Below are positions 1 through 12,491 of a stretch of 12,491 nucleotides of DNA, piece after piece (positions within the stretch are counted from its first letter, which is position 1; every line of letters starts with the position of its first letter). The DNA lies in assembly GCA_964493715.1 (NCBI GenBank), contig CAZBPC010000071.1, forward strand, positions 4,604 to 17,094. The letters run 5' to 3'. The notes below the pieces were generated by a model. It was not told the DNA's origin and did not search any database. It saw nothing but the letters and a program-made list of their open reading frames with translations. This stretch comes from an uncultured archaeon. Lineage in GTDB: Archaea > Asgardarchaeota > Lokiarchaeia > Sigyniarchaeales > SOKP01. Made by a program: the position numbers and the translations under genes.

Positions 1-1065
1 TGAATTTAATTGTTTCCCCTCATTTTCAAAAAAGAACTCTACCATGGATAATTTCATCTTAAAATTCCTTATAATTTTTTTCACGTTTGGGTACTTTTTG
101 TAAGATTTTAGACTTTCCTTGGAGGTATCTTCATTTTCTAATGCATTAATCGCACAGTATGCGGCAGCTTCACCAGATACGATACTTGGATGTATTCCTT
201 CTCCACTAATGGGTGAAACAAATCCAGCTGCATCACCTATAATCATCAGATTGTCAGCATATAAAGATCTGTCAATAACACCAGAACCAGGCATGGGATA
301 AGCTCCACTCCAATGAGTTTTATAATTAGATCCAGAGAAAATTTTTTTAATAAAAGGGTCTTTAAAGAAATTAAAATGTACTTCACTTAAATTGTATTTT
401 GCATTGTCTTCATTACAAGTACCGCATCCAATATTGAATTTATTATCTTTCAATGGAAAAATCCAGCCATAGCCTTTATATTTTTGGAAAAAAAGGAAGA
501 TTTTTGACGCATCTAAAGATAATTCTCCTTCCATAATTGCGCATTTCGCTTGATATAGATCATTTATTTGCCATTTTTTCCTTATACCTGAATTATTTGC
601 TAATTTGGAACTCATGCCATCAGCAATAATTAGTATTTTGCCTAAAAAGTCTGTTGAATCAGATTTTGTTTTAGTCTTTATACCTATTTTATTACCATCC
701 TTATAGAGAAAATCGTAGGAAAGATGCTTATCAAATAATTCTGCTCCAGAATCGATCGCAACGTTTCTTATTACATTATTAAATTCTAACCTATCCACGT
801 TAATCGAAGATTCCCTAATATTTTGCCAAGAATATTCCAAATTGTCATAATCACTTGAATACATTGAAACGCCATTAATTTTATGATAATCAAGCTTTCT
901 TAATTGAGGATAATACTTAAAAATCCGTGAACTAACTCCTCCACCACAAGGTTTTCTCCAATTTGTATTTCTTTCAAGTAGGGCTACTTTAAACCCTGCT
1001 TTAGCTAAAACTTCCGCACTTTTACAACCTGCAGGACCCGCACCTGATATTACAACGTCAAACAT
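1..1065 (-). CDS. Geranylgeranyl reductase family FAD-dependent oxidoreductase (DGGGPL reductase-like); 3' end runs off the window
   Basis: Not in the ORF track (no stop in window). Hand translation from ATG at 1065..1063: MFDVVISGAGPAGCKSAEVLAKAGFKVALLERNTNWRKPCGGGVS... with Rossmann GxGxxG, KPCGGG, IIADG, GYGWIFP (YxWxFP GGR motif) and IGDAAGFVSPISGEGI. The frame stays open to position 1. AAGGT precedes the ATG. Confidence 0.9.
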   Translation of the reverse strand, partial: MFDVVISGAGPAGCKSAEVLAKAGFKVALLERNTNWRKPCGGGVSSRIFKYYPQLRKLDYHKINGVSMYSSDYDNLEYSWQNIRESSINVDRLEFNNVIRNVAIDSGAELFDKHLSYDFLYKDGNKIGIKTKTKSDSTDFLGKILIIADGMSSKLANNSGIRKKWQINDLYQAKCAIMEGELSLDASKIFLFFQKYKGYGWIFPLKDNKFNIGCGTCNEDNAKYNLSEVHFNFFKDPFIKKIFSGSNYKTHWSGAYPMPGSGVIDRSLYADNLMIIGDAAGFVSPISGEGIHPSIVSGEAAAYCAINALENEDTSKESLKSYKKYPNVKKIIRNFKMKLSMVEFFFENEGKQLNS

Positions 1066-1141: not shown

Positions 1142-2350
1142 ATGAATAATCAAAGTGAAAAAGATTTCTACGACTTTATTATAGCGGGAGCAGGTCCAGC
1201 GGGATTATCAGCTGGTATCGTCGCCGCTAGGAAAGGACATTCAGTTATGATATTAGAACGAGGGAATGTTGCTGGTCCTAAGCCTCGTGGGGAAGGGATG
1301 GGCTATTTTCCAGTGGTTGATGAAATTTTAGGTGAAAATTTCCTACCATCAATCGGGATTAAGTCAAATGGTGGACGAGTTTGGCATTCACCAAATGACG
1401 AGCATAATTTGACCACGTTTAAAGACTATCCTCACTACTTCTTTGAATGGCGTAAATTTATTGATAGATTTGTTGAAGTTTCCAATCAAGAGGGAGTTCG
1501 AATGAAATTCAACTGTGAAGTCATTGATTCTATAGAAGATGATGGAGTCTGTAAGGGTGTGAGATATCAAACTAATGGAAAAGTCAATGAGATTCGTGGA
1601 AAGATAATATTGGATTGTAGTGGGTATGAAGGAGTAATTGGTAAGCAATTTGGAGTGCCATATGAACTAATGCGATGTCCAATAGTCAAATGTCTTATTA
1701 GTAAGGCAAATTACACGCTTGAAAATACTCCAGATTTAAATTTTTACTTTATCGGAAATGGCGATTTGGAATATGCTCCTCAATTCCCCCCTGCTGTTGC
1801 TTACTTTTTCCCCTTAGATGGAGACCGTGCAGAAGTAGGTCTTATGTTGAGGATGGCTCAGGTACCAAATATGAAAACTGTTAAGATTCCAAATAATAAT
1901 GAAATAATTAAAGCATGGCATAAGGTAAAATCATCTTATCCTGGATTTAACGAATACTTTAAAGGCGCTAATATTGATTATGAAGAGGTTACTAGTCTAC
2001 CTAATGCGAAAATGGCTGAAAAGTTTGTTCCTCATCCTGGAGTTGTAATAATAGGAGATAGTGCTGGTTTTATTAATCCTTTTGGATCCTCTGGGCTATA
2101 CTACTCGATGAAAATGGCAAAGTATTGGGTACAAATGCTTTCAGAAAAACTTGAAACTGTAGATTTATGGAACAAGCAAAGTATCGATGACTACCAAACA
2201 CGATTTGAGGAATCCGAGTTATACCAAGAAGTAAAGGGCATGTATGATTTAATAGGGGCCTTTGAATACAAGATTTTTAATAGGTTACGGACTTCTGAAA
2301 AAATTAATAAGAAGTGGGACTATATAGAGAATCTTTTAAAGCAAGCTTGA
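1142..2350 (+). CDS. NAD(P)/FAD-dependent oxidoreductase, geranylgeranyl reductase-like family (divergent active-site motifs)
   Basis: 402 aa ORF with DFIIAGAGPAG (FAD binding), ILDCSG and IIGDSAGFINPFGSSG (GD motif). The canonical KPCG and YxWxFP motifs appear as KPRG and AYFFP. Confidence 0.85.
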   Translation: MNNQSEKDFYDFIIAGAGPAGLSAGIVAARKGHSVMILERGNVAGPKPRGEGMGYFPVVDEILGENFLPSIGIKSNGGRVWHSPNDEHNLTTFKDYPHYFFEWRKFIDRFVEVSNQEGVRMKFNCEVIDSIEDDGVCKGVRYQTNGKVNEIRGKIILDCSGYEGVIGKQFGVPYELMRCPIVKCLISKANYTLENTPDLNFYFIGNGDLEYAPQFPPAVAYFFPLDGDRAEVGLMLRMAQVPNMKTVKIPNNNEIIKAWHKVKSSYPGFNEYFKGANIDYEEVTSLPNAKMAEKFVPHPGVVIIGDSAGFINPFGSSGLYYSMKMAKYWVQMLSEKLETVDLWNKQSIDDYQTRFEESELYQEVKGMYDLIGAFEYKIFNRLRTSEKINKKWDYIENLLKQA

Positions 2351-2395: not shown

Positions 2396-3418
2396 TTAGC
2401 TCATTGATACTTTTATTTTGTTTATGTAACCTTTCCTTTTTCCGAAATTTACACCTAGTATTAAACCAAGAATTCCTGATATAACATCAACCAGTAGAGT
2501 AATTATAAGAGCCTCAGTCACTGTTAGATTGAACTTTTTTATGATAAATAGCCCAACAAACACTAAAACACCAGCAACTAATGGTATGGCAACTAATGAT
2601 ATAATTAAAAGTTTTAATGAGATACTTTTCTCCTTATTTGTTCGAAGCAAGAATAGATCTATTAAAACGTGCTTACTGCCAACACTCCACATCCATAAAA
2701 TTATTACAAGACTGGCTAAATAAATACCGATAGATAAATCGATAAAATAAATAGATCCATTAGCAATAACAGTTTCAGTATAGCTCTTAAGATTTATTAT
2801 AAAATTTAAACCCAACACAATTATTGTCCACGGAATTAAATATTGCCAAAAAAGATGTCTTGTATATGCACTGGGCGAATTAGAACTTGATTGTAAGTTC
2901 TTAAAAGCAGTCACAAATGAATCGAGGTCCTTTTTAAGATGGCGCTTTATGAGTACAGTATTTAAGATGAATGTGATAACAAAGGCAATTATAATTGCTA
3001 TTATATAATTAAGAAATTCTGGATTGATTAACCAAAAAACTAGCCATAATACAGATAAAGTCCCAATACTTAAAATGATTGCTTCAGGGGTTAATCTGCG
3101 CCAAGGACTTTTAAATTTTTCATTCTCGTTTACTGAATCTGACTCTTTTAATTTCCATTTTCCATTTATAAAGGCAATTTGAGAATCTTTTATTGCATTA
3201 TATGGAACTATTAATGAGATATAGGTAATATATAAAATAATGAACCCAAAATTTGTAATCAATAAGTTATGGGTATTCCCTTTTCCAATAAGAACGTAAT
3301 AAAGTAGACCAAATATAATAAGATTAATCAAGTTGGAGATAATATTTAATGCATTCACTTTTTTAATCCATTCTTGCATGCTTAATACTTCTTTAGCTTT
3401 TTTTCCTTTTTCATTCAT
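2396..3418 (-). CDS. Hypothetical integral membrane protein (~8 TM segments)
   Basis: 340 aa ORF with about eight hydrophobic stretches by eye, in two groups of four separated by a polar linker (KRHLKKDLDSFVTAFKNLQSSSNSPS). Starts 33 bp downstream of the GH29 stop on the same strand. No family recognised. Confidence 0.75.
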   Translation of the reverse strand: MNEKGKKAKEVLSMQEWIKKVNALNIISNLINLIIFGLLYYVLIGKGNTHNLLITNFGFIILYITYISLIVPYNAIKDSQIAFINGKWKLKESDSVNENEKFKSPWRRLTPEAIILSIGTLSVLWLVFWLINPEFLNYIIAIIIAFVITFILNTVLIKRHLKKDLDSFVTAFKNLQSSSNSPSAYTRHLFWQYLIPWTIIVLGLNFIINLKSYTETVIANGSIYFIDLSIGIYLASLVIILWMWSVGSKHVLIDLFLLRTNKEKSISLKLLIISLVAIPLVAGVLVFVGLFIIKKFNLTVTEALIITLLVDVISGILGLILGVNFGKRKGYINKIKVSMS

Positions 3419-3451
3419 CTTTTATTCTCAAACCTTTTTATATTATTTCAT

Positions 3452-4906
3452 TTAACTTGCGTTTCTTGGTTGGGGAGAAATCTTAAAACTATATGCGGGA
3501 GAAACTTCAATTTTTTCTGGAAGTATTATTTTTAGATTCATTCCTTCTTGATACCATTCTAGTTTACCATTATATCCTAATAAATGAATGGTGGTATTTT
3601 CGTTAACGATTATCGAATTGATAGTAATAATTGTATTTAGCTTATTTAATACTATTGCATAGAGAATATCATCTTTCTGTGTATAACGTAAATTTAAATC
3701 ATTCATTGTTTTCCCTTCTGCAATAATCCAAGGTCTTGTTCCAAATATGGCTTCTCCATTCACTTCAAGCCATTTTCCCAATCCAATTAATCTCTCCAAT
3801 TGAAGTCTGGGAATTGTCCCATCGACCATTGGTCCTACATTTAATAAAAGATTTCCATTTTTGCTTACAATATCTACAAACAGGTAAATTAATTCATCAA
3901 CCGATAAGTAATCGTTTTCAGTTTCAAATTTATTATATCCAAAAGAATTCCCAATTCCTCTACAAGTTTCCCACTTTTCTTCTAATATTTCTTTCGATTG
4001 AGTGTATTCGGGAGTTAAAAAATCATAATGTGGCGGTTTAAAGGCTATATTTTTTCCCTTTTTTAACATTCGTTTTCCGAACCAAGAAATTAAGGCTCCA
4101 GTTAATCTAGATTCAATCAATTTTCGAAAGGATGGAGAAGTTTGTATCCAACGATCATTTACAACTCCATCAGAGATTTTGTTATAAAAATACGAGAACA
4201 ATTCATTAATATTTGTATTTGGAGGATATCCCATATCACTCCATAAAATGGAAGGCTCATAATCATCAATTAATTCGCGCCAATGATTATTAACGTATTC
4301 TGTGTATTCAGGATCGGTAGGACCATTAGTTAAAAATGTTTTTATATTTGTAACAGGAATCTCATTAAAGGACCAATCCCAACAACTACTATAATAAAAA
4401 CCCATCTTTAAATCCCTACTTTTTATCGCCTTTGTGAGATCTCCTACAAGATTTCTCTTTGTCATATAATTTTTCTTTTTAGGATTAGGATATTTACTAT
4501 GCCATAAAAGAAATCCGTCACCGTGTTTTGTTGTAAAAACTACATATTTTGCACCTATTTCTTTAAATATATCTGCCCATTTCTCTGGATCCCATTTTTC
4601 AATTTCCTTATTAAATATTGGAACAAAATCATCGTATTTAAAATCATCACCATAAACTTCATTATGATATTTATAGGTAGGACTTTCTTTAATCCTTAAA
4701 GAATTTAAATACCATTCTGCATAAGGATTATTTATAAAATGCTGTACTGGACCTTTCTTCATAGAATTTACTAAATCTGTTCCTGTAACAGCAAATGCTG
4801 GAACTGAAAATAAACCTAAATGAATAAAGATTCCTAATTTAGCATCATGAAACCAATTAGGAACTTCATGTGTTTTTACTGATTTTAATTCAGGTGTGAA
4901 AGTCAA
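3452..4906 (-). CDS. Alpha-L-fucosidase, GH29 (Thermotoga AfcA-like), variant copy; TTG start
   Basis: 484 aa with WFHDAKLGIFIH, NPYAEWY, TKHGDGF, LWSDMG (nucleophile Asp), NDRW, DFLTPEY (acid/base Glu), WETCRGIGNSFGY, GNLLLNVGP and NGEAIFGTRPW. The N-terminus aligns with the ATG-started paralog. No signal peptide. Confidence 0.92.
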   Translation of the reverse strand: MTFTPELKSVKTHEVPNWFHDAKLGIFIHLGLFSVPAFAVTGTDLVNSMKKGPVQHFINNPYAEWYLNSLRIKESPTYKYHNEVYGDDFKYDDFVPIFNKEIEKWDPEKWADIFKEIGAKYVVFTTKHGDGFLLWHSKYPNPKKKNYMTKRNLVGDLTKAIKSRDLKMGFYYSSCWDWSFNEIPVTNIKTFLTNGPTDPEYTEYVNNHWRELIDDYEPSILWSDMGYPPNTNINELFSYFYNKISDGVVNDRWIQTSPSFRKLIESRLTGALISWFGKRMLKKGKNIAFKPPHYDFLTPEYTQSKEILEEKWETCRGIGNSFGYNKFETENDYLSVDELIYLFVDIVSKNGNLLLNVGPMVDGTIPRLQLERLIGLGKWLEVNGEAIFGTRPWIIAEGKTMNDLNLRYTQKDDILYAIVLNKLNTIITINSIIVNENTTIHLLGYNGKLEWYQEGMNLKIILPEKIEVSPAYSFKISPQPRNAS

Positions 4907-4913
4907 TTTTAAA

Positions 4914-4918
4914 TCCTC
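4914..4918 (-). promoter_or_regulatory. Shine-Dalgarno-like GAGGA upstream of the TTG start of the variant GH29
   Basis: Minus strand reads GAGGA-tttaaaa-TTG (7 nt spacer), which supports the TTG start. Confidence 0.55.
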
Positions 4919-5017
4919 ATTATTATCGCTTAATAGAGCAAGCTAAATTTTAGTAAAGCTTTTTGAAAATGAATATTAATTTAGTAATTAATTTTATTAA
5001 TTTTAGTGGAAAATTAT

Positions 5018-6052
5018 TTAATTTTGCTGCACAGACTTGAATAATGCATCAACATTAGCGGGGTTCACATCTGGGAGAATAGCTTCGTGACTAGGAGATA
5101 TTATCAATCCTGTTGGAAAAATGCGTTTTAATTCAAATACCTTTTCTCGGATTTGGTCAGGATTGCCAAAAACTAATAAATTCTGAGCATCAAGACCTCC
5201 ACAAAAAGAAATTTTATCTCCATAATTACTTTTTAAAGATTTAACATCCATTTTAGCAGCTAAAGCTTGTATAGGGTGAATAGCATCGATTCCCAAATTA
5301 ATTAAATCAGGGATAACATCAAATATTGAACCACAAGAATGATAAATGACTTTTAAACCATAACTTTTAGCTTGATCAATAATCTTTTTTGATCCTGGGA
5401 GGGCAAATTTTCTAATGTTTTCTGGAGAAACCATCAATCTCTTTTGTCCTCCGAAATCATTTCCAATAAGGACAGCATCTATTTTTCCCTTAGTTGCTTC
5501 GTAAAAAATTTTATTTGCCTTTAGATAAAATTCAACTATCTTTTCTGAAACAGCTTTTATTATTTCGGGATTCTTTAATATATTGATAAGAGCTCTCTCC
5601 ATCCCGAAAGCAGAATACACGTCTTGAAAATGTGCTGACCACATAATCCCCAACACCGGATATTCTTCTGGAACATCTTCAATACGCTGCTTGCATTCTT
5701 CTGAATCCATATAATTTGATGGGTCAGGCCACTCAAAATCGTCCACTTTAGAAGGATCAGAATAATCTTCAAAAAATCCAGGTGCTGTTAAAGTTCTTTT
5801 TGAATAATTAATTGTACCTTTTTTAGCAAAATCAAACGCACATGCGATGTGATTATTAGGAGGATAATTATAAGGAACCTCTACATGCCAAATGTCATCA
5901 TTAATTTTTAATTTTAAATCTACTAGATTCTTAACTTGAAAATACTTAAATAATCCTTCATAAGCTTCTTGAACTGGTATACCTAACCAACATGCGGGTC
6001 TATCTACAGATTTTCTCTCTAATGTAGCAAAAAATCTCTCTTTATGATTCAT
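5018..6052 (-). CDS. Uroporphyrinogen decarboxylase (URO-D)/MtaA-CmuA methyltransferase superfamily protein (not HemE)
   Basis: 344 aa with N-terminal MNHKERF...VDRP, GNDFGGQKRLMVSP, YHSCG (5330..5341), IHPIQ, FCGGLD and ISPSHE. Lacks the HemE MRQAGRY motif. Confidence 0.85.
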   Translation of the reverse strand: MNHKERFFATLERKSVDRPACWLGIPVQEAYEGLFKYFQVKNLVDLKLKINDDIWHVEVPYNYPPNNHIACAFDFAKKGTINYSKRTLTAPGFFEDYSDPSKVDDFEWPDPSNYMDSEECKQRIEDVPEEYPVLGIMWSAHFQDVYSAFGMERALINILKNPEIIKAVSEKIVEFYLKANKIFYEATKGKIDAVLIGNDFGGQKRLMVSPENIRKFALPGSKKIIDQAKSYGLKVIYHSCGSIFDVIPDLINLGIDAIHPIQALAAKMDVKSLKSNYGDKISFCGGLDAQNLLVFGNPDQIREKVFELKRIFPTGLIISPSHEAILPDVNPANVDALFKSVQQN

Positions 6053-6218
6053 CTATTTTTATATCACTTATGTGTGCTTAAAAGTCATCCAGAAATTAAT
6101 TTCATTAAAATAAAAGTTATTTTAAAACTTTCCTGCAATATTAAACATAAATATTAATTTAAGAAATCACGAATTAAATAAAAAAACATATGCAAAAAAA
6201 ATGGGATAGTTATTAAAA

Positions 6219-7406
6219 ATGAATGCTCGTGAAAGAGTTGTAAAGGCGATAAACCATGAAGAACCCGACATTATTCCGTCATATGAAGGTTCAATTGATA
6301 ATTTAAGCATTATTAATTATTATGACGAAAGATATGGGATGGATGGCTTAGCAAATCTTCAGAAGCTTTTGTACTTTTTAACCTTCGGTAACAATAATTT
6401 ATTAAATAAATTAATGCAATCTTTATCTCGAGGGAAAAAAGCAGCTAAAACAGCTGTAGAACCTGGAGTAAGACTATATAAAAAGATTGGTTTAGATCTT
6501 GTGCCTATTACTTTATGTATTCACCCATATAAATATTATAAAAATGGTTTTATAAGTGAATTTGGTCATCGTTTTGAATATAAGGAGAATCCTGCTGATA
6601 AAATGAATTTATTATATTATATGGGGGGATCCTTTGACAATTTTGAAGAATATGAAAAATTTCCTCTTCCAGATCCCGATGATCCATTAAGAGAAAACCT
6701 TTTTAAAGCAGCAGTGCAACTTGAAAAAGAGAATAAGGAAGAGATTTGTTGCGCTCCTGGGATAACTGGTATGATGGAAATGACTTGGGAAGGATTTGGT
6801 TTAGAAAGTTTCAGCAAACTTTTAACTAATAAAAAAAATGCTAAAAAAGTTTTTGACGATCGAGGTAAATTCTCTGTAGAGATGGTTAAACGCATAATTG
6901 AATGGGGCGGAACAGGACCAATGTTAATATTTGATGATTATGGATATAAAAAAGGGTTATTCATGAGCCCTCAAAATTATAGGGAATTTGTTATTCCATG
7001 GTTAAAAGAGATTTGTAAACAAGCACATAAAGGTGATTTACAAGTAATTCTGCATAGTTGTGGTGATATTTACCAAATTTTTGAGGATATTATTGAAGCT
7101 GGAGTCGATGCTGTTCATCCAATTGAACCGACTACTTCTAATCCTGAATATAATATTTTTAAACTCAATGAAAAATATGGCGATAAAATTACTTTCCTGG
7201 GAAATGTTTCACCTCAAGATCTTTCAGATAAAGACCCTCAAACTATCTTGGAATATGTTAAAAGCTTAATTAAGAATATTGCTCCAGGAGGTGGCTTTAT
7301 TCTAAGCTCTGGTCATAGTATTAATCCAGCAATTAAGTTAGAAAACTTTCTTGCAATGAGAGAAGCATTACAAAAATATGGGAAATATCCTATAGTAGTT
7401 AATTAA
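6219..7406 (+). CDS. Uroporphyrinogen decarboxylase (URO-D)/MtaA-CmuA methyltransferase superfamily protein (not HemE)
   Basis: 395 aa with MNARERVVKAINHEEPD, FDDYGYKKGLFMSP, LHSCG (7053..7064), VHPIE, FLGNV and GGGFILSSGHSI. Lacks the HemE MRQAGRY motif. Confidence 0.85.
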   Translation: MNARERVVKAINHEEPDIIPSYEGSIDNLSIINYYDERYGMDGLANLQKLLYFLTFGNNNLLNKLMQSLSRGKKAAKTAVEPGVRLYKKIGLDLVPITLCIHPYKYYKNGFISEFGHRFEYKENPADKMNLLYYMGGSFDNFEEYEKFPLPDPDDPLRENLFKAAVQLEKENKEEICCAPGITGMMEMTWEGFGLESFSKLLTNKKNAKKVFDDRGKFSVEMVKRIIEWGGTGPMLIFDDYGYKKGLFMSPQNYREFVIPWLKEICKQAHKGDLQVILHSCGDIYQIFEDIIEAGVDAVHPIEPTTSNPEYNIFKLNEKYGDKITFLGNVSPQDLSDKDPQTILEYVKSLIKNIAPGGGFILSSGHSINPAIKLENFLAMREALQKYGKYPIVVN

Positions 7407-7437
7407 AAAATAAAAATCTAATATATATAATTTTGAG

Positions 7438-8811
7438 TCAAATAGGTTTAGGAGTAATTTTGAGAACGTAGGCGGCAGAGTTCTTCAAATTAAATGGGAT
7501 TGATATTTTTAATGTTCCATTCACTTGTTGCCAATTTAATAGCTCCTCATAACCCAATATTTTAATCTTAGAATCTTCCATAATTCGTAAATCGCATATG
7601 GTAATCTCATTCACATTTGAATCGGTTAAGAGATGAATATAAAGATTATTATCTTTTTGAGTAAATTTAATAGGGATTTTCTCAAGGGTTTCTCCTTCAG
7701 CCTTTAGCCACGGTCTAGTTTCAAAAATCGCTTCACCATTAACTTCTAACCATTTTCCAATCCCTAAGATTGCTTTCTTTTGCAATTCTGGTATTGAACC
7801 GTCCATTTTTGGTCCAACATTAATAAGAAGATTTCCATTCTTACATACAACATCAATTAGCAAATAAATTAACTCTTTTGGAGCCAAGTACTCATTTTCA
7901 GTTTCTATTTTATTATATCCGTAGGAATTTCCTATACCTCTTGTGCTCTCCCATTTATAATTAGTAATTTTGGGCATCTTTTCATATTCTGGAGTTATAA
8001 AATCCCAATGCCTTACTGTAGGATGTTTAAATTCAGATTTATGGGATTGTTTCCATCTATCATTTATAACCCCTTCAGGTAATTTATTATAAAAGTATGA
8101 GAAAATTTCATATACATTAGTATTAGGAGGATAACCAATATCATTCCATAAAATTATGGGTTCAAATTTATCTATAAGCTCATACCAATGATTATTAGCA
8201 TAATTTGTGTACTGGATCGAATCTGGGCCGTTTGAAATAAATGATTTGCCATCAATTATGGGATTAGGGTTAAATGACCAATCCAATGCACCAGAATAAT
8301 AAAAACCCATTTTTAAACCTCTCTTTTTTACGGCGTTAGTGAGTTCACTCACAATATTCCTACTAGCATGATATTTTTTTTTATTTGGGTTTTTGTAGTC
8401 GCTTGACCATAAAAGAAAGCCATCATGATGTTTTGTTACTAAAACAACATACTTTGCTCCAGCTTTTTTAAAGAGATCAGCCATTTCATCAGGATTCCAT
8501 TTCTCAATTTCCTTATTAAAGATTGGAATAAATTCATCATAAGAAAAATTCGCTCCATAGGTTTGTTCATGAAATTTTTGTGTTGGACTTCCTTTTATCC
8601 TTAAAGAATTTAAATACCATTCGGCATAGGGATTATTTTTAAAATGCTCTTCAGGACCTCTCTTCATGGAATCTACTAAATTTATTCCAGTAATAGCAAA
8701 TGCTGGTACAGAATATAATCCCCAATGAACAAAAATTCCAAATTTTGCATTATGAAACCAATCTGGGACCTCATGTTGCTTTAATGAAGCTTTTTCAGGA
8801 GTGTATTTCAT
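7438..8811 (-). CDS. Alpha-L-fucosidase, GH29 (Thermotoga AfcA-like), canonical copy
   Basis: 457 aa with WFHNAKFGIFVHWG, NPYAEWY, TKHHDGF, YYSGALDW, LWNDIG (nucleophile), NDRW, DFITPEY (acid/base), WESTRGIG and GNLLINVGP. No signal peptide. Starts 32 bp downstream of fucI. Confidence 0.95.
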   Translation of the reverse strand: MKYTPEKASLKQHEVPDWFHNAKFGIFVHWGLYSVPAFAITGINLVDSMKRGPEEHFKNNPYAEWYLNSLRIKGSPTQKFHEQTYGANFSYDEFIPIFNKEIEKWNPDEMADLFKKAGAKYVVLVTKHHDGFLLWSSDYKNPNKKKYHASRNIVSELTNAVKKRGLKMGFYYSGALDWSFNPNPIIDGKSFISNGPDSIQYTNYANNHWYELIDKFEPIILWNDIGYPPNTNVYEIFSYFYNKLPEGVINDRWKQSHKSEFKHPTVRHWDFITPEYEKMPKITNYKWESTRGIGNSYGYNKIETENEYLAPKELIYLLIDVVCKNGNLLINVGPKMDGSIPELQKKAILGIGKWLEVNGEAIFETRPWLKAEGETLEKIPIKFTQKDNNLYIHLLTDSNVNEITICDLRIMEDSKIKILGYEELLNWQQVNGTLKISIPFNLKNSAAYVLKITPKPI

Positions 8812-8843
8812 ATTTTTTTCAATCTCATTCTGTAAAAAATGTG

Positions 8844-10646
8844 CTATAACTTACCATATAAAGGACCAAAATTAGAACATGCTCTAAAATCTGCCCCTTC
8901 TAAGTTTTCAGTTCCAAAGCTGGTCCAAACACTTGGCCTGAATATCTTTTGGTTACGAATATTATGCATAAAAACTGGTATTCTTAACATTGATGCGAGA
9001 GTGATCAAGTCCGCCCCAATATGACCATAAGAGAGAACTCCATGATTGGCTCCCCAATTATTCATTACATCATATACAGTTGTAAATGCACCAACACCAG
9101 TTAATCTTGGAACAAACCAAGTAGTAGGCCAAGTATTATTAGTTCGATCATCTAATACTTTATGGATATTAAATGGGACATCAATCGCCCAACCCTCAGC
9201 TAATTGAAGCACTAATCCGATATTTTGAACGATATTAACTCTTGAAAGGGTCATTGGCATTTCCCCTCTTGTTAAAAAGTTTGAAGAAAATCCCCCTCCT
9301 CTAAAATATTCATAAATAACAGGGTCCCATTTTGAAGCGAGTAAACATCTCTTGACTTCTTCTTCTGTAATTAGCCAGAAGGGCTTTAATGCTGGTTTTC
9401 CCTCTATTTCTTGTTGTCCAGTACCATCCATCGTTGCAGAACCAGAATTAATAAGATGAATTATGCCTTTCTCTGCTTTCCCAGTTAACTTCATCCCAGT
9501 GACACGCTCTACTGCTTCTGGACTCCAAAAAGTTCTAACGTCGGCAAAAATCTGTGCGGTATTAGTTAACAAATGACTAAACAACATGGTGATTCCATTC
9601 AAAGCATCATTTTCGGTTGCCATCAGATAGGGTTGTCTGATTCCATTCCAATCAAATGAAGAGTTTAAAATAGTTTCCATGAAATCCCCATTCGGCATGA
9701 AATCAGTCCAATGGCGTTGTCCTTGAAATCCAGCAACTATAGCGTTATGTCCCAATGATTCTTCCCCATATCCCTTATTTTTTAATTCTGGATTACCTAC
9801 CATGAGATCTCTACAAATCATCGCCATTTTTATCATAATATCCCACTCTTCATCTTTTTGTACTCTGCTTTTTTGAAATTCGGAAGGGTTTGTATCTATT
9901 CCTTCTTTACAATATTCTTTCACCCATTTGAAAGCTAAATTGAATTCATTTTTATCATATATTCCTTCATGAATTCTCCGAGAAATTTCTGACATATCCA
10001 CATATTCATTTCTCATATCAAAATATTTCTGGAAATACTTTTCATCTATGATGGATCCAGCAATGCCCATTGAAACACTTCCTATTGATAAATATGATTT
10101 TCCTCTCATCCAAGCCACTGAAAGACCCGCCTTGGCAAATCGCAATAGTTTCTCTTTTACATCTTCAGGTATACTTGTATCATTTTCGTCCTGAACATCT
10201 TTTCCATAAATTCCAAATGCAGGTAACCCTTTTTGCGAATGAGCGGCTAAAACTGCTGCAAGATATACTGCACCTGGTCTTTCTGTACCATTAAATCCCC
10301 ATATAGCTTTAGGAATAAAAGGATCCATATCCATAGTTTCTGTTCCATAACACCAACAAGGAGTGACGGTTATTGAAACACCTACATCTTCCTTTCGGAA
10401 TTTTTGTGCACACTCTTCTGCTTGGGCAACACCACCAATCGTAGAATCTGATATCACGCATTTTACATTCATTCCATTAGGATATACTAAATGTGCACTT
10501 AGAAACTTAGCCACTGAATTTGCCATACCCATTGTTTGTTCTTCAAGCGATTCGCGAACTCCTTTTTCTCTTCCATCAATAGTAGGTCTGATACCAATTT
10601 TTGGGATAGCACCTTTTAACCTTTTCTTTCCAATGTGTTTCTCCAT
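8844..10646 (-). CDS. fucI: L-fucose isomerase
   Basis: 600 aa with [52 protein letters not shown] (catalytic/Mn Glu), FADVRT (Asp) and WGANHG (His). These are all hallmark FucI motifs. Confidence 0.97.
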
Positions 10647-10650
10647 ATAT

Positions 10651-10657
10651 TTTACCT
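10651..10657 (-). promoter_or_regulatory. SD-like AGGTAAA upstream of fucI
   Basis: Minus strand reads AGGTAAA-atat-ATG. Near-identical AGGTAAA-tata-ATG precedes the MFS gene at 12341..12354, and AAGGT precedes the GGR start at 1065. Confidence 0.45.
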
Positions 10658-10735
10658 AAAATTATCAATGAATTAAGATTTAAAAAAGATAATTAAGAAA
10701 TAATTAAAATTTTTATTACTAAATTGAAAAATCCT

Positions 10736-12223
10736 TCAAATTATTTTGTCCCAAACTTTACGAGTAATATTGTTAGGATCGTTTTCTACTTTTGGTTCCT
10801 GAGCCAATATCATTACTGCTCTTTTTTTTAAGTCATAGATTGGCCATTCAGGGATACCAGAATGAGAAGGAATTCCAGTTCTAGCAAAAGTTACCCACGT
10901 GTCCATCATCATCTTAGATAAATCCTTGGTCTTTGGTGTTTTAATAATCACCCCTTCAGTCATGTCTTCTCCTAAAGTACCAAATACGAAAGCCATTTCA
11001 AAAGTATGCAATGCGGCACCAAACTTAGGAGAATCATAATAGAAGATATAGTGATATATATTATTTTGGTGTTCAACGTGAGCTTCAAGTTGACGAAGAA
11101 TTGGAATTCTAAACAAGGAATCTGATAATAAGAAATCCCAATATTTAAAATCGTTCTCGGGATAAATTAGTTTTGTTTCTGCTTTATAGATTTTTATTAA
11201 TTCCTCTAATTTTTCTTCAGAAATTCCACTTTTTTTGAATTGGGATTTCATTAACTTCATTATCAACGATCGTTTAACTTGATTGGAATTTTTTAGAAGA
11301 TCTGAGATCATTCCTAATTCTTCACTGTTATATCCGATTATTATTGGAACCTTAGCAGAATTTCCCTTCTTGATAATATCAATGGGCTGCTCGGGCATAA
11401 CTTCTCCATCTACGAAAGGTCTGAATGGATTATCTTTTAGATCGAAAACAGTGCCTGCAATCTTCTTTTGAACTTTAATCAGCTTTGTTAGCTCTATTTT
11501 TTTTAAGGTGTTAATATCATTTAATTTCAAACCTAATTTTTTCATAAACTTTTTCGCACCATTCCTAGCACTCTCTGCATCAAAATCTCGGGGGTTTGTT
11601 GCTCCACTCTCGATTATTGCTTTTTGATATAGTTCTTGAGCTAATGGAATAGTGAGTAAAATCCCTACAGACATTCCACCTGCGGACTCTCCAAAAATTG
11701 TAATGTTCTTCGGATCTCCCCCAAATTTTGCAATATTGTTTTGTACCCATTCTAAAGCTGCAACTTGATCTAAGATTCCTATATTTGGAGGTATTCCAGG
11801 TAAATTCAGAAACCCTAATGCTCCTAAGCGATAATTAAAACTCACTATAACAACATTGCCATATTCTGCTAACTTAGAACCATTGAATCTCTCTCTTGAA
11901 CCTGCACCAATTACGAAACCACCTCCATGAATCCAAAACATGACGGGTCGCTGCCTATTATCTGCTTGAGGAGTCCAAATATTAAGATAAAGACAATCTT
12001 CATTTTCTTCTTGTTTTATTGGGCTTTCATCGATATAATTTTGGGGTGCAATAGAACTGAAATTAGTAGCATCTTTTATATCATCCCAAGGATCCATCGG
12101 TTGAGGCTTTTGAAATCTCAAATCTCCCACGGGAGGTTTTGCATAAGGGATTCCATAGAACCTTTGATAACCAGATTCTTGAACTCCTCTAATTTTTCCT
12201 TTTAGTGTTTCTATTACAACCAT
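10736..12223 (-). CDS. Type-B carboxylesterase/lipase family protein (PnbA-like alpha/beta hydrolase)
   Basis: 495 aa with GIPYAKPPVGDLRF, EDCLYLNIW, WIHGGGF (oxyanion hole), NYRLG, FGGDP, GESAG (catalytic Ser, 11678..11692), GYNSEE (Glu) and ALHTFE (His). Confidence 0.93.
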   Translation of the reverse strand: MVVIETLKGKIRGVQESGYQRFYGIPYAKPPVGDLRFQKPQPMDPWDDIKDATNFSSIAPQNYIDESPIKQEENEDCLYLNIWTPQADNRQRPVMFWIHGGGFVIGAGSRERFNGSKLAEYGNVVIVSFNYRLGALGFLNLPGIPPNIGILDQVAALEWVQNNIAKFGGDPKNITIFGESAGGMSVGILLTIPLAQELYQKAIIESGATNPRDFDAESARNGAKKFMKKLGLKLNDINTLKKIELTKLIKVQKKIAGTVFDLKDNPFRPFVDGEVMPEQPIDIIKKGNSAKVPIIIGYNSEELGMISDLLKNSNQVKRSLIMKLMKSQFKKSGISEEKLEELIKIYKAETKLIYPENDFKYWDFLLSDSLFRIPILRQLEAHVEHQNNIYHYIFYYDSPKFGAALHTFEMAFVFGTLGEDMTEGVIIKTPKTKDLSKMMMDTWVTFARTGIPSHSGIPEWPIYDLKKRAVMILAQEPKVENDPNNITRKVWDKII

Positions 12224-12270
12224 AACTTAACAAAAATTAACGAGACAATTAATTAATTTTGGTTATTTTT

Positions 12271-12298
12271 GTTATATAAAGTTATAAACCTTTATATT
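12271..12298. promoter_or_regulatory. Candidate divergent archaeal-type TATA boxes between the esterase and MFS genes
   Basis: TTTATATA on minus (12273..12280), about 50 nt upstream of the esterase ATG. TTTATAT on plus (12291..12297), about 55 nt upstream of the MFS ATG. The AT-rich context makes chance matches plausible. Confidence 0.35.
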
Positions 12299-12351
12299 GT
12301 AAAAAAATCAATCTATATGCACCTTCAATTTAAAATAAAAAGGTAAATATA

Positions 12352-12491
12352 ATGGAAATTCATAGTAAAAAACAATTGAGTTCGAGGAATTTATGGGGAT
12401 ATGCTTTAGGTGCCATTCCTAATGGATTGTTAGTGTTTATCTTTGGGTTAAAGTACATTCAACTCTTTTTTGACAAATTACATTTGAACCC
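12352..12491 (+). CDS. MFS transporter, probably GPH/MelB (glycoside-pentoside-hexuronide:cation symporter) family; N-terminal fragment only
   Basis: Not in the ORF track. Hand translation gives MEIHSKKQLSSRNLWGYALGAIPNGLLVFIFGLKYIQLFFDKLHLN(P), which matches the GPH TM1 pattern GY-x-LG...Y-x-x-x-F-x-D-x-L-x-L-x-P. AGGT SD-like sequence upstream. Open to the window end. Confidence 0.7.
   Translation, partial: MEIHSKKQLSSRNLWGYALGAIPNGLLVFIFGLKYIQLFFDKLHLN

Follow-up and report, generated by a model that had tools for sequence, protein, structure and literature searches.

A fucose-catabolic locus of a lokiarchaeon with two URO-D-fold proteins that may demethylate methylated 6-deoxyhexoses

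Introduction

O-methyl groups, as in 2-O-methyl-fucose, methyl-rhamnoses and 6-O-methyl-galactose, keep sugars out of the usual catabolic pathways, and the question addressed here is how anaerobes handle such sugars. It is raised by a 12,491-nucleotide stretch of DNA (called the window hereafter), the final 12.5 kb of a 17-kb contig in a metagenome-assembled genome of the Lokiarchaeota/Promethearchaeota (assembly size 3.68 Mb, 31% G+C, archaeal 16S rRNA present, nearest protein homologs under Lokiarchaeota or Promethearchaeota names), where two proteins with the fold of uroporphyrinogen decarboxylase (URO-D) are encoded among genes for fucose use. An initial annotation, made from the sequence alone, had described a gene for L-fucose isomerase (FucI), two for GH29 alpha-L-fucosidases, two URO-D/MtaA-fold genes with an HxC motif (called UROD1 and UROD2 here), one for a carboxylesterase, one for a membrane protein without family and one for an MFS/GPH importer. 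It had proposed that fucosides are imported, deacylated, cleaved and O-demethylated before the sugar reaches FucI. Calling of open reading frames (ORFs) and Pfam/NCBIfam scans returned all of these genes as placed, apart from the importer, which is treated below, and family scans agreed that no fucK-, fucA-, fucU- or fucO-like gene is present in the window. Taken as a whole, this earlier interpretation is partly supported. Our own assessment leans slightly towards a reading in which the locus is a cytoplasmic fucoside-catabolic cluster and its two URO-D-fold proteins are corrinoid-dependent methyltransferases demethylating methylated 6-deoxyhexoses for FucI.

Linkage of UROD1 to deoxyhexose genes

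The gene for UROD1 (5018-6052 on the minus strand, 344 amino acids; PF01208, 84 bits) is directly followed on its 3′ side by the gene for GH29 fucosidase A (3452-4906, minus strand; PF01120, 1.5e-88, from residue 3) and diverges from the gene for UROD2 (6219-7406, plus strand, 395 amino acids; PF01208, 99 bits). Beyond UROD2 lie the genes for GH29 fucosidase B (7438-8811, minus strand; PF01120, 3.9e-91, from residue 2) and for FucI (8844-10646, minus strand), the latter scoring 1065 bits against NF008220 (cut-off 775) and 1024 bits against TIGR01089 (cut-off 850). FucI is single-copy in the genome, as seen from one tblastn match, and the window holds both GH29 genes and this only FucI beside two of the 18 URO-D paralogs of the genome. 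Since the sole FucI and both GH29 genes are co-located and the linkage recurs in other genomes, the clustering of GH29, FucI and URO-D genes is more than chance.

The recurrence was followed in a census of 20 loci from species-representative genomes and the best 80 of at least 551 metagenome matches, for which reference proteins were located by tblastn, neighbouring ORFs were clustered and the clusters were named by Pfam. Loci with at least 65% identity were classed as Asgard-type, and the counts given below refer, unless stated otherwise, to the 15 Asgard-type and 64 bacterial-type loci with at least 3 kb of flank and to neighbours within 5 kb of UROD1. GH29 is present in 14 of the 15 Asgard-type loci, FucI and a UROD2 ortholog in 6 each, GH78 and an FGGY kinase in 3 each, and a corrinoid protein in none. 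GH29 adjoins the UROD1 ortholog in all eight Asgard genome loci (8/8) and in all three further genomes of the same taxonomic family that have the ortholog (3/3). Gene orders vary among these loci: two of them (L010 and L023) read aldehyde:ferredoxin oxidoreductase (AFOR)-class II aldolase-FucI-GH29-GH29-UROD1, with GH78 and an FGGY kinase nearby, and in L006 a sulfatase sits between UROD1 and FucI.

In the bacterial-type loci the most frequent neighbours are the RhaM mutarotase (29/64) and RhaT-family permeases (18/64), followed by CUT2-type ABC components (10-11/64), GH29 (6/64), GH95-like proteins and SSF transporters (5/64 each) and pectate lyases (4/64). RhaM starts at most 150 bp downstream of UROD1 in 26 of the 68 loci with at least 500 bp of downstream sequence, and three compact operons (L021, L016 and L025) consist of importer, UROD1 and RhaM alone, without a glycosidase. 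Counting RhaM, RhaT, GH29, FucI, GH78 and GH95-like proteins as deoxyhexose markers, at least one of them is found in 39 of the 64 loci. Linkage of the URO-D clades to fucose genes, a check named in the initial annotation, is borne out for UROD1; for UROD2, the linkage consists of the orthologs near UROD1 in 6 of the 15 Asgard-type loci.

The UROD1 family is widespread. Its best 120 homologs listed are 59-90% identical and include Asgard archaea, Clostridia (Mahella, Clostridium thailandense), Limnochordia and Planctomycetota, metagenome contigs contribute at least 551 relatives, and the identity between proteins of Asgard archaea and bacteria is 54-70%. In a tree of 99 rows (96 distinct), the 24 Asgard-type rows cluster together (SH-aLRT 98) and are surrounded by bacterial ones, a topology that fits a single inter-domain transfer, in either direction given the very long outgroup branch. 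On this tree, 17 changes are needed for RhaM, 11 for RhaT, 7 for the corrinoid protein and 6 each for GH29 and ABC components, all of them counts that are inflated by cut contigs; several changes per label imply that the neighbour associations were not inherited as one block.

Within the taxonomic family of the window, GH29 was found in 21 of 40 other genomes. Ten GH29-bearing genomes were searched in full and three of these contain a UROD1 ortholog, each about 320 bp from GH29. A phylum-wide sample gave UROD1 in none of 198 other genomes at E ≤ 1e-60 with at most ten candidates per genome scored, which is an unreliable lower bound given this candidate limit and the orthologs later found in the three same-family genomes. 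In three Asgard genomes, the GH29 matches carry one or two in-frame stops (TAA or TGA; G151:C30:16790-17878, G210:C141:6793-7878 and G075:C11:17061-18146), and the interrupted GH29 of G210 adjoins the UROD1 ortholog there. These matches may be broken genes, sequencing errors or cases of recoding.

Corrinoid genes in bacterial UROD1 loci

A corrinoid protein with B12-binding and B12-binding_2 domains is encoded near UROD1 in 11 of the 64 bacterial-type loci (L014, L016, L042, L043, L058, L072, L078, L082, L084, L099 and L100). The corrinoid link proposed at the outset for the URO-D genes therefore has a counterpart in bacteria and, with 0 of 15, none in the Asgard-type loci. The corrinoid proteins of UROD1 loci carry a D-x-H-x-x-G motif and occur in several architectures. 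L084 and L099, and in part L078 and L082, show the order SSF transporter-UROD1-RhaM-RhaT-corrinoid protein-MtaA-like protein-Met_synt_B12-like protein on a single strand, while L014 (Rikenellaceae) has corrinoid protein-MtaA-like protein-Met_synt_B12-like protein-UROD1-RhaM; the MtaA-like gene of L084, L099 and L014 scores 184 bits to PF01208, and the Met_synt_B12-like protein corresponds to a reactivation domain of the MetH type. L016 combines a CUT2 ABC importer, UROD1, RhaM and the corrinoid protein. L072 contains RhaT, GH29, UROD1, one further gene, the corrinoid protein, a pterin-binding second methyltransferase (MT2) and MTHFR, the arrangement classically seen where a bacterial O-demethylase delivers methyl groups as methyl-tetrahydrofolate. 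In L042, L043 and L058, a fucose-isomerase-like gene, UROD1, a pectate lyase, a PocR/AraC regulator, the corrinoid protein and GH106 are found together. UROD1 is the constant member across these architectures and the type of MT2 varies, which is the pattern expected of a substrate-specific first methyltransferase (MT1).

L100 differs by a gene for MtaB (methanol:cobalamin methyltransferase, 527 bits; L100:7864-9237), which follows the corrinoid protein and lies between it and the Met_synt_B12-like gene of an SSF-UROD1-RhaM-RhaT operon, at the place where the sister loci have the MtaA-like gene. Two further features of UROD1 loci are recorded here as observations. In L042, L043 and L058, which belong to one bacterial clade, UROD1 is preceded (about 3600-7500) by a transketolase encoded in split form, an Asp/Glu-racemase-like gene and the gene for a protein of 466 aa that carries only the C-terminal domain of L-fucose isomerase; through this gene set the demethylated sugar may be processed in another way. 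A protein of about 362 aa, for which the Pfam scan gave no match, recurs in five UROD1 loci (L100:1549-2637, L084:710-1801, L016:15072-16190 and two more); in L084 and L100 its gene immediately precedes those for the SSF transporter and UROD1, and in L016 it lies about 4 kb downstream of UROD1.

Nine of ten bacterial genomes with a UROD1 ortholog encode at least one small corrinoid protein, which is weak evidence, small corrinoid proteins being common in anaerobes; the tenth genome, whose ortholog match is partial, has a MetH-sized corrinoid protein only. An interaction was also examined by structure prediction. The complex predicted for the L084 ortholog and the corrinoid protein of its own operon reached a score of 0.79, compared with 0.02 for the best of three controls. 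The mark used for this score is reached by 58 of 80 solved complexes and by 2 of 110 mismatched pairs, calibration counts that hold only roughly for a model built, as here, on our own alignments. Between runs, at least 86% of the contacts are reproduced, the pLDDT of the partner is at least 83, and the contact segments of UROD1, residues 152-162 and 203-213, are largely invariant stretches of the family, the protein of the window included. For this bacterial pair, the model supports binding of UROD1 to its corrinoid protein.

Family, fold and motifs of UROD1 and UROD2

UROD1 and UROD2 are homologous over their full length and about 31% identical, with an extra helical insert near the N-terminus of UROD2. 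Their scores against the HemE model TIGR01464 are 16.7 and 37.1 bits, respectively, far from the cut-off of 302.95, and both also stay below the curated cut-offs of 235-600 bits of the MtaA/CmuA models (TIGR01463, NF040654 and NF041608). The best score with any methyltransferase model was obtained with NF004889 (57 bits for UROD1 and 71 bits for UROD2, cut-off 244). Judged by these scores, neither protein is a HemE or an MtaA equivalog, and both are members of the wider UroD superfamily, to which the MT1s of corrinoid O-demethylases also belong (PMC13222342; PMC10418091). A lookup in a protein atlas gave only 'URO-D family' clusters.

AlphaFold models of high confidence (pLDDT 91.8 for UROD1 and 92.7 for UROD2) match MtaA of Methanosarcina mazei (TM to target 0.70-0.77) and, about equally, HemE, followed by Zn-dependent MetE. 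The best folds for UROD1 are HemE and MtaA 4ay8 (TM 0.70), then MetE, and the top fold for UROD2 is MtaA. Many HemE structures are found for the URO-D (beta/alpha)8 fold with Foldseek E values of 1e-13 to 1e-10 and TM values of 0.62-0.70. Being common to HemE and methyltransferases, this fold does not discriminate between them. At the level of sequence, UROD2 gave weak matches in the PDB to CdmB (9rui, 8e-6 over 163 residues) and MtaA (4ay7, 7e-5). CdmB is the chloromethane:corrinoid MT1 of Acetobacterium; it is among the MT1s of the UroD superfamily (PMC13222342).

Both proteins contain an H-S-C motif, which is invariant in the UROD1 family and nearly invariant in the UROD2 family and which aligns with 'LHICGN' of 4ay7. 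The invariant residues of the UROD1 family alignment include H238-S-C240-G and S319-P-S-H322-E323, and C284 is nearly invariant; in the UROD2 family, S280-C281 are invariant and H279 and H366 nearly so. The zinc site of MtaA we take to be H-x-C ... C, with motif positions read from the 4ay7 alignment. The position of the Cys in 4ay7 'APGCGIAP' is occupied by an invariant His in UROD1 and a nearly invariant His in UROD2. In one member of the UROD2 family (P0178), Tyr replaces both presumed metal-ligand His residues, H279 and H366, a paired change that fits these two residues acting together.

The 120 best UROD2 matches listed carry only Asgard or metagenome names, which suggests that UROD2 belongs to an Asgard-only expanded family distinct from that of UROD1. 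UROD2 may act as an additional MT1, directed at a different methyl position, or as the archaeal MT2. The other URO-D paralogs of the genome are found in varied contexts, among them two MFS_2 transporters, HdrA-like proteins, sulfotransferases, a GH94-like protein, a PfkB kinase and AMP-binding proteins, and no general rule for UROD2 emerged from these. Among the 18 paralogs, a 145-aa remnant with an in-frame TAA (G000:C12:51385-51792) is probably a pseudogene.

Corrinoid and deoxyhexose genes elsewhere in the genome

A corrinoid protein and a RACo/RamA-type activator were to be looked for in the rest of the genome according to the initial annotation, as were fucK and fucA, and counterparts of all of these turned up. 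The genome encodes five small B12-binding_2 corrinoid proteins and one more that is cut by a contig end, as well as one RACo/RamA-type activator (310 bits). The corrinoid proteins on contigs C40 and C6 (L123 and L124) are flanked by MttB-family genes, two on C101 (L106) occur together with two other URO-D genes, and one on C102 (L122) lies beside an MFS_2 (GPH) sugar transporter. In this survey by context, no partner of UROD1 could be singled out. On C157 (L111), a 516-aa URO-D ORF adjoins a cut corrinoid gene.

Six FGGY kinases (FGGY_N matches above the cut-off) are encoded outside the window, and no RhaM was found in the genome. The 6.5-kb contig C125 (L121:1-6475) carries a rhamnose-type cluster of RhaA (the C-terminal 247 residues, cut by the contig end), AFOR, a FucA-like class II aldolase and GH78. 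The AFOR-aldolase pair and GH78 are counterparts (56-66% identity) of genes in the L010 and L023 fucose clusters, the aldolase being 65% identical to that of L010. It appears from these matches that both the downstream deoxyhexose catabolism and the corrinoid machinery exist in the genome, outside this locus.

Proposed function and alternatives

The most economical reading of these data is that UROD1 is the MT1 of a corrinoid-dependent demethylase acting on a small, invariant, methylated 6-deoxyhexose (methyl-fucose, perhaps also methyl-rhamnose), and that its product is the free sugar, passed to the mutarotase in bacteria and to FucI in the archaeon. What the data show are the identities of the genes, the fold, the conserved motifs and a conserved linkage to deoxyhexose genes and, in bacteria, to corrinoid systems; that a methyl group is transferred, that a metal takes part, which sugar is the substrate and which archaeal proteins are the partners is what we infer. 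In the archaeon, fucosides would enter via the GPH-type transporter, and the two GH29 enzymes, both lacking a signal peptide, would release fucose and O-methyl-fucose inside the cell; acyl groups may be taken off by the esterase. In UROD1, the residues H238, C240 and H322 would hold a metal, probably Zn, that polarises the ether oxygen, and Co(I) of a corrinoid protein encoded elsewhere would attack and accept the methyl group, a chemistry proposed by analogy to MtaB and MtaA. The methyl group would pass on to C1 metabolism via an MT2. The free sugar would be processed by FucI, an FGGY kinase, a class II aldolase and AFOR, the latter three encoded on other contigs; lactaldehyde is probably handled by ferredoxin-dependent AFOR and not by FucO or AldA.

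More tentatively, and with somewhat less than even confidence, it is proposed that corrinoid-dependent sugar O-demethylases form a widespread family, spread by horizontal exchange, with UROD1 as its founding member, which would be the first case of anoxic removal of carbohydrate methyl ethers, and that UROD2 represents an Asgard radiation for other methylated substrates. Methyl-fucose or methyl-rhamnose would derive from pectin rhamnogalacturonan II (RG-II) and from algal and microbial glycans, and the sugar-borne methyl groups would pass to the C1 metabolism of sediment and gut anaerobes and of Asgard archaea.

Several observations weigh against UROD1 and UROD2 being corrinoid-dependent sugar demethylases. 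No deoxyhexose marker is found in 25 of the 64 bacterial-type loci and no corrinoid gene in 53 of them, and corrinoid protein, MT2 and activator are absent from the window and from all 15 Asgard-type loci. Seven of the ten GH29-bearing same-family genomes lack UROD1, which means that it is unneeded for fucoside use as such. As MtaB, a methanol MT1, is encoded directly after the corrinoid protein of L100, this corrinoid protein could serve methanol instead of UROD1. At the protein level, both proteins score 52-71 bits where the MtaA/MtbA/CmuA cut-offs are 235-600, the fold of UROD1 fits HemE as well as MtaA, and single-sequence and profile searches of UROD1 against PDB sequences gave no match at E ≤ 0.01. 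The literature search found no biochemical precedent for Co(I) cleaving the methyl ether of a sugar, which is aliphatic, and the characterised relative CdmB needs no zinc (PMC13222342). Lastly, no RNA data were found: the stretch is present in 24 sequencing runs, all of DNA, from salt-marsh or sediment metagenomes.

Some of these points are shared by the alternative that survives best, which we regard as unlikely. It takes UROD1 and UROD2 as metal-dependent TIM-barrel enzymes catalysing a corrinoid-independent deoxyhexose reaction, for example as isomerase, epimerase or hydrolytic de-etherase/de-esterase releasing methanol, with nearby corrinoid genes serving other purposes such as methanol capture by MtaBC. 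The loci without a nearby corrinoid gene (53/64 bacterial-type and 15/15 Asgard-type), the MtaB beside the corrinoid protein of L100, the low scores with MtaA models and the presence of cofactor-free HemE and corrinoid-independent MetE among the fold matches would all be accounted for. However, MtaB occurs in just one of the 11 corrinoid-linked loci, and in L072, L084, L099 and L014 UROD1 has a corrinoid protein and an MT2 beside it and is the only MT1 candidate. The predicted complex, moreover, passes its controls by way of invariant surface segments of UROD1, which argues for a corrinoid partner in the bacterial system, and small corrinoid proteins in nine of the ten ortholog-bearing bacterial genomes point the same way, common as they are in anaerobes.

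Corrinoid-dependent demethylation could also be directed at another part of the molecule, namely methoxylated aglycones (phenolics, flavonoids) freed from fucosides or rhamnosides, with the sugar genes as mere neighbours. The UroD-superfamily O-demethylase MT1s that PMC13222342 names as characterised all act on methoxylated aromatics or haloalkanes, the corrinoid linkage is the same, and GH78 rhamnosidase or GH29 is a neighbour in some loci. This reading is judged improbable, given that the commonest neighbours of UROD1 handle free monosaccharides: RhaM directly downstream (26/68), RhaT, and CUT2-type ABC systems with Peripla_BP_4 binding proteins. The operons of L021, L016 and L025 manage with importer, UROD1 and RhaM and without any glycosidase, and a cross-domain identity of 54-70% fits one small invariant substrate.

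Even less probable is a role of UROD1 as an MT2-type enzyme, which like MtaA would transfer methyl groups from a methyl-corrinoid to a thiol or another acceptor, or a role in biosynthetic sugar methylation. UROD1 resembles MT2 enzymes in its H-x-C motif and its MtaA-like fold, and L100 possesses MtaB as MT1, the corrinoid protein and UROD1, with no other URO-D-fold MT2. Yet L084, L099 and L014 already have a canonical MtaA-like gene and L072 a pterin-binding MT2, the tight coupling to RhaM, RhaT and GH29 would be left unexplained, and the neighbours (glycosidases, importers, isomerase) are catabolic. A juxtaposition without functional meaning, in which two of the abundant URO-D paralogs came to lie among fucose genes by chance, draws on the very varied contexts of the 18 paralogs (MFS_2, HdrA-like oxidoreductases, sulfotransferases, AMP-binding) and on UROD2 being part of that expanded family, but is very improbable and for UROD1 already contradicted, as its linkage to GH29 holds through different gene orders (14/15 Asgard-type loci and 3/3 further genomes) and the deoxyhexose linkage recurs in unrelated bacterial phyla with 17 changes for RhaM and 6 for GH29 on the tree.

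Further features of the locus

ORF calling and Pfam/NCBIfam scans divide the finding region into four transcription units. The first (minus strand) comprises UROD1, GH29 A and a gene for a multi-pass membrane protein of 340 aa (2396-3418), the second (plus strand) UROD2, the third (minus strand) the genes for a type-B carboxylesterase, FucI and GH29 B, in this order, and the fourth (plus strand) a transporter gene of which 46 codons are present before the contig ends. The AT-rich 166-bp region between UROD1 and UROD2 (6053-6218) presumably contains the promoters of both genes; a comparison of the AT-rich intergenic regions revealed no convincing common word or regulatory motif.

The two fucosidases are 56% identical to each other and match PF01120 over their full length (298 bits for A and 306.5 bits for B) as well as Fucosidase_C (PF16757, 35 and 31 bits). 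The esterase (10736-12223, minus strand) matches PF00135 (1.1e-127) from residue 3. As the family matches of GH29 A, GH29 B and the esterase begin at residue 2 or 3, there is no room for a signal peptide, and all three enzymes should act in the cytoplasm.

Comparison backs a part in the system neither for the esterase, which the initial annotation had cast as remover of acyl groups, nor for the membrane protein. The esterase is near UROD1 in only two Asgard-type loci, the window itself and L029 (at 8.2 kb). The membrane protein, recognised by hydrophobic stretches in its translation, gave no match in Pfam and NCBIfam scans, and its homologs are confined to three near-identical relatives (L026-L028, 83-99% identity). 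Both are, by this distribution, lineage-specific additions and not conserved parts of the system.

The transporter fragment (12352-12489, plus strand), divergent from the esterase gene and cut at the contig end, had been called an MFS/GPH importer. Its 46 codons gave no direct family match, so that the label is supported by homology: the fragment shares 43% identity (E 2e-5) with the N-terminus of a PF13347 protein of 466 aa. This transporter is encoded in L031, a syntenic Asgard locus, where it follows the UROD2 ortholog. As a candidate for the remainder of the gene, an end-cut GPH gene on contig C72 was considered and rejected, being just 24% identical to the L031 transporter. On C72 (L120:4599-12000), this cut GPH transporter gene is followed by a 123-aa ORF and by genes for a Peptidase_S15/CocE-type hydrolase, for a GH38 alpha-mannosidase and for a SIS-domain protein, which together make up another cytoplasmic glycan-processing cluster. 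At the other end of the window, two genes of the FAD-dependent geranylgeranyl-reductase family (1-1065, minus strand, and 1142-2350, plus strand) have no visible tie to the fucose genes.

Comparison with known systems

If the proposed function is correct, corrinoid O-demethylation extends from aromatic ethers and C1 compounds to carbohydrates, which ties polysaccharide degradation to the methyl-group (acetogenic or methylotrophic) metabolism of anaerobes. It would also explain proteins that numerous genomes from guts, digesters and sediments list as 'uroporphyrinogen decarboxylase family protein' and give a concrete physiological role to part of the large Asgard URO-D expansion. The initial annotation knew of no characterised anaerobic pathway for methyl-fucose demethylation, and our literature search, with subscription journals and supplementary files outside its coverage, likewise found none, nor anything on corrinoid-dependent sugar demethylation or on the UROD1 family, nor a paper containing both 'uroporphyrinogen decarboxylase' and 'rhamnose mutarotase'.

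The closest likeness is to the three-component corrinoid O-demethylases and dehalogenases. MtvB, OdmB, VdmB and CdmB are UroD-superfamily MT1s that each act together with a corrinoid protein and an MT2; some of them contain zinc, and homologues have been reported in Asgard archaea (PMC13222342; PMC10418091). UROD1 has in common with them the UroD-superfamily TIM barrel and, in some bacterial loci, a co-operonic D-x-H-x-x-G corrinoid protein, an MT2 and a reactivation module. It differs in that their known substrates are aryl methyl ethers or halomethanes, whereas the context of UROD1 points to methylated 6-deoxy sugars and thus to aliphatic ethers, in lacking sequence-level similarity to any solved MT1, and in that the partners are not adjacent in the archaeal locus. 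CdmB, which is zinc-free (PMC13222342), does not have the H-x-C...H motif that UROD1 carries. The proposed system would thus be a three-component corrinoid demethylase with a new substrate class, a view that is well supported by context.

The methylcobamide:coenzyme M methyltransferases MtaA and MtbA (4ay7/4ay8; TIGR01463, NF040654) are the best or near-best structural match of both proteins, and the H-x-C motif is common to them and aligned. The third ligand position is His in UROD1 and UROD2 and Cys in MtaA, the scores of both proteins are far under the family cut-offs, methanogenesis genes are missing, and for UROD1 at least, its neighbourhood speaks for a role of the MT1 type. With the bacterial L-fucose pathway (FucI-FucK-FucA), the locus shares a full-score FucI equivalog and, through L010 and L023, a cluster with aldolase II, FGGY kinase and AFOR; kinase, aldolase and mutarotase are located outside the archaeal locus.

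With respect to physiology, a parallel is the P450 6-O-methyl-D-galactose demethylase used by marine Flavobacteriia for growth on porphyran, an O2-dependent route of aerobic marine bacteria and the sole sugar demethylation that the literature search found (PMC6292453; PMC10033563). This enzyme has the same role, in that it takes off an O-methyl group by which the sugar is barred from catabolism, and its gene is part of a polysaccharide-utilisation locus. It works oxidatively with O2, yields formaldehyde and belongs to an unrelated protein family. The proposed UROD1 system, unlike the P450 enzyme, would operate without oxygen, would retain the methyl group by binding it to a corrinoid and would be tied to fucose- or rhamnose-type sugars.

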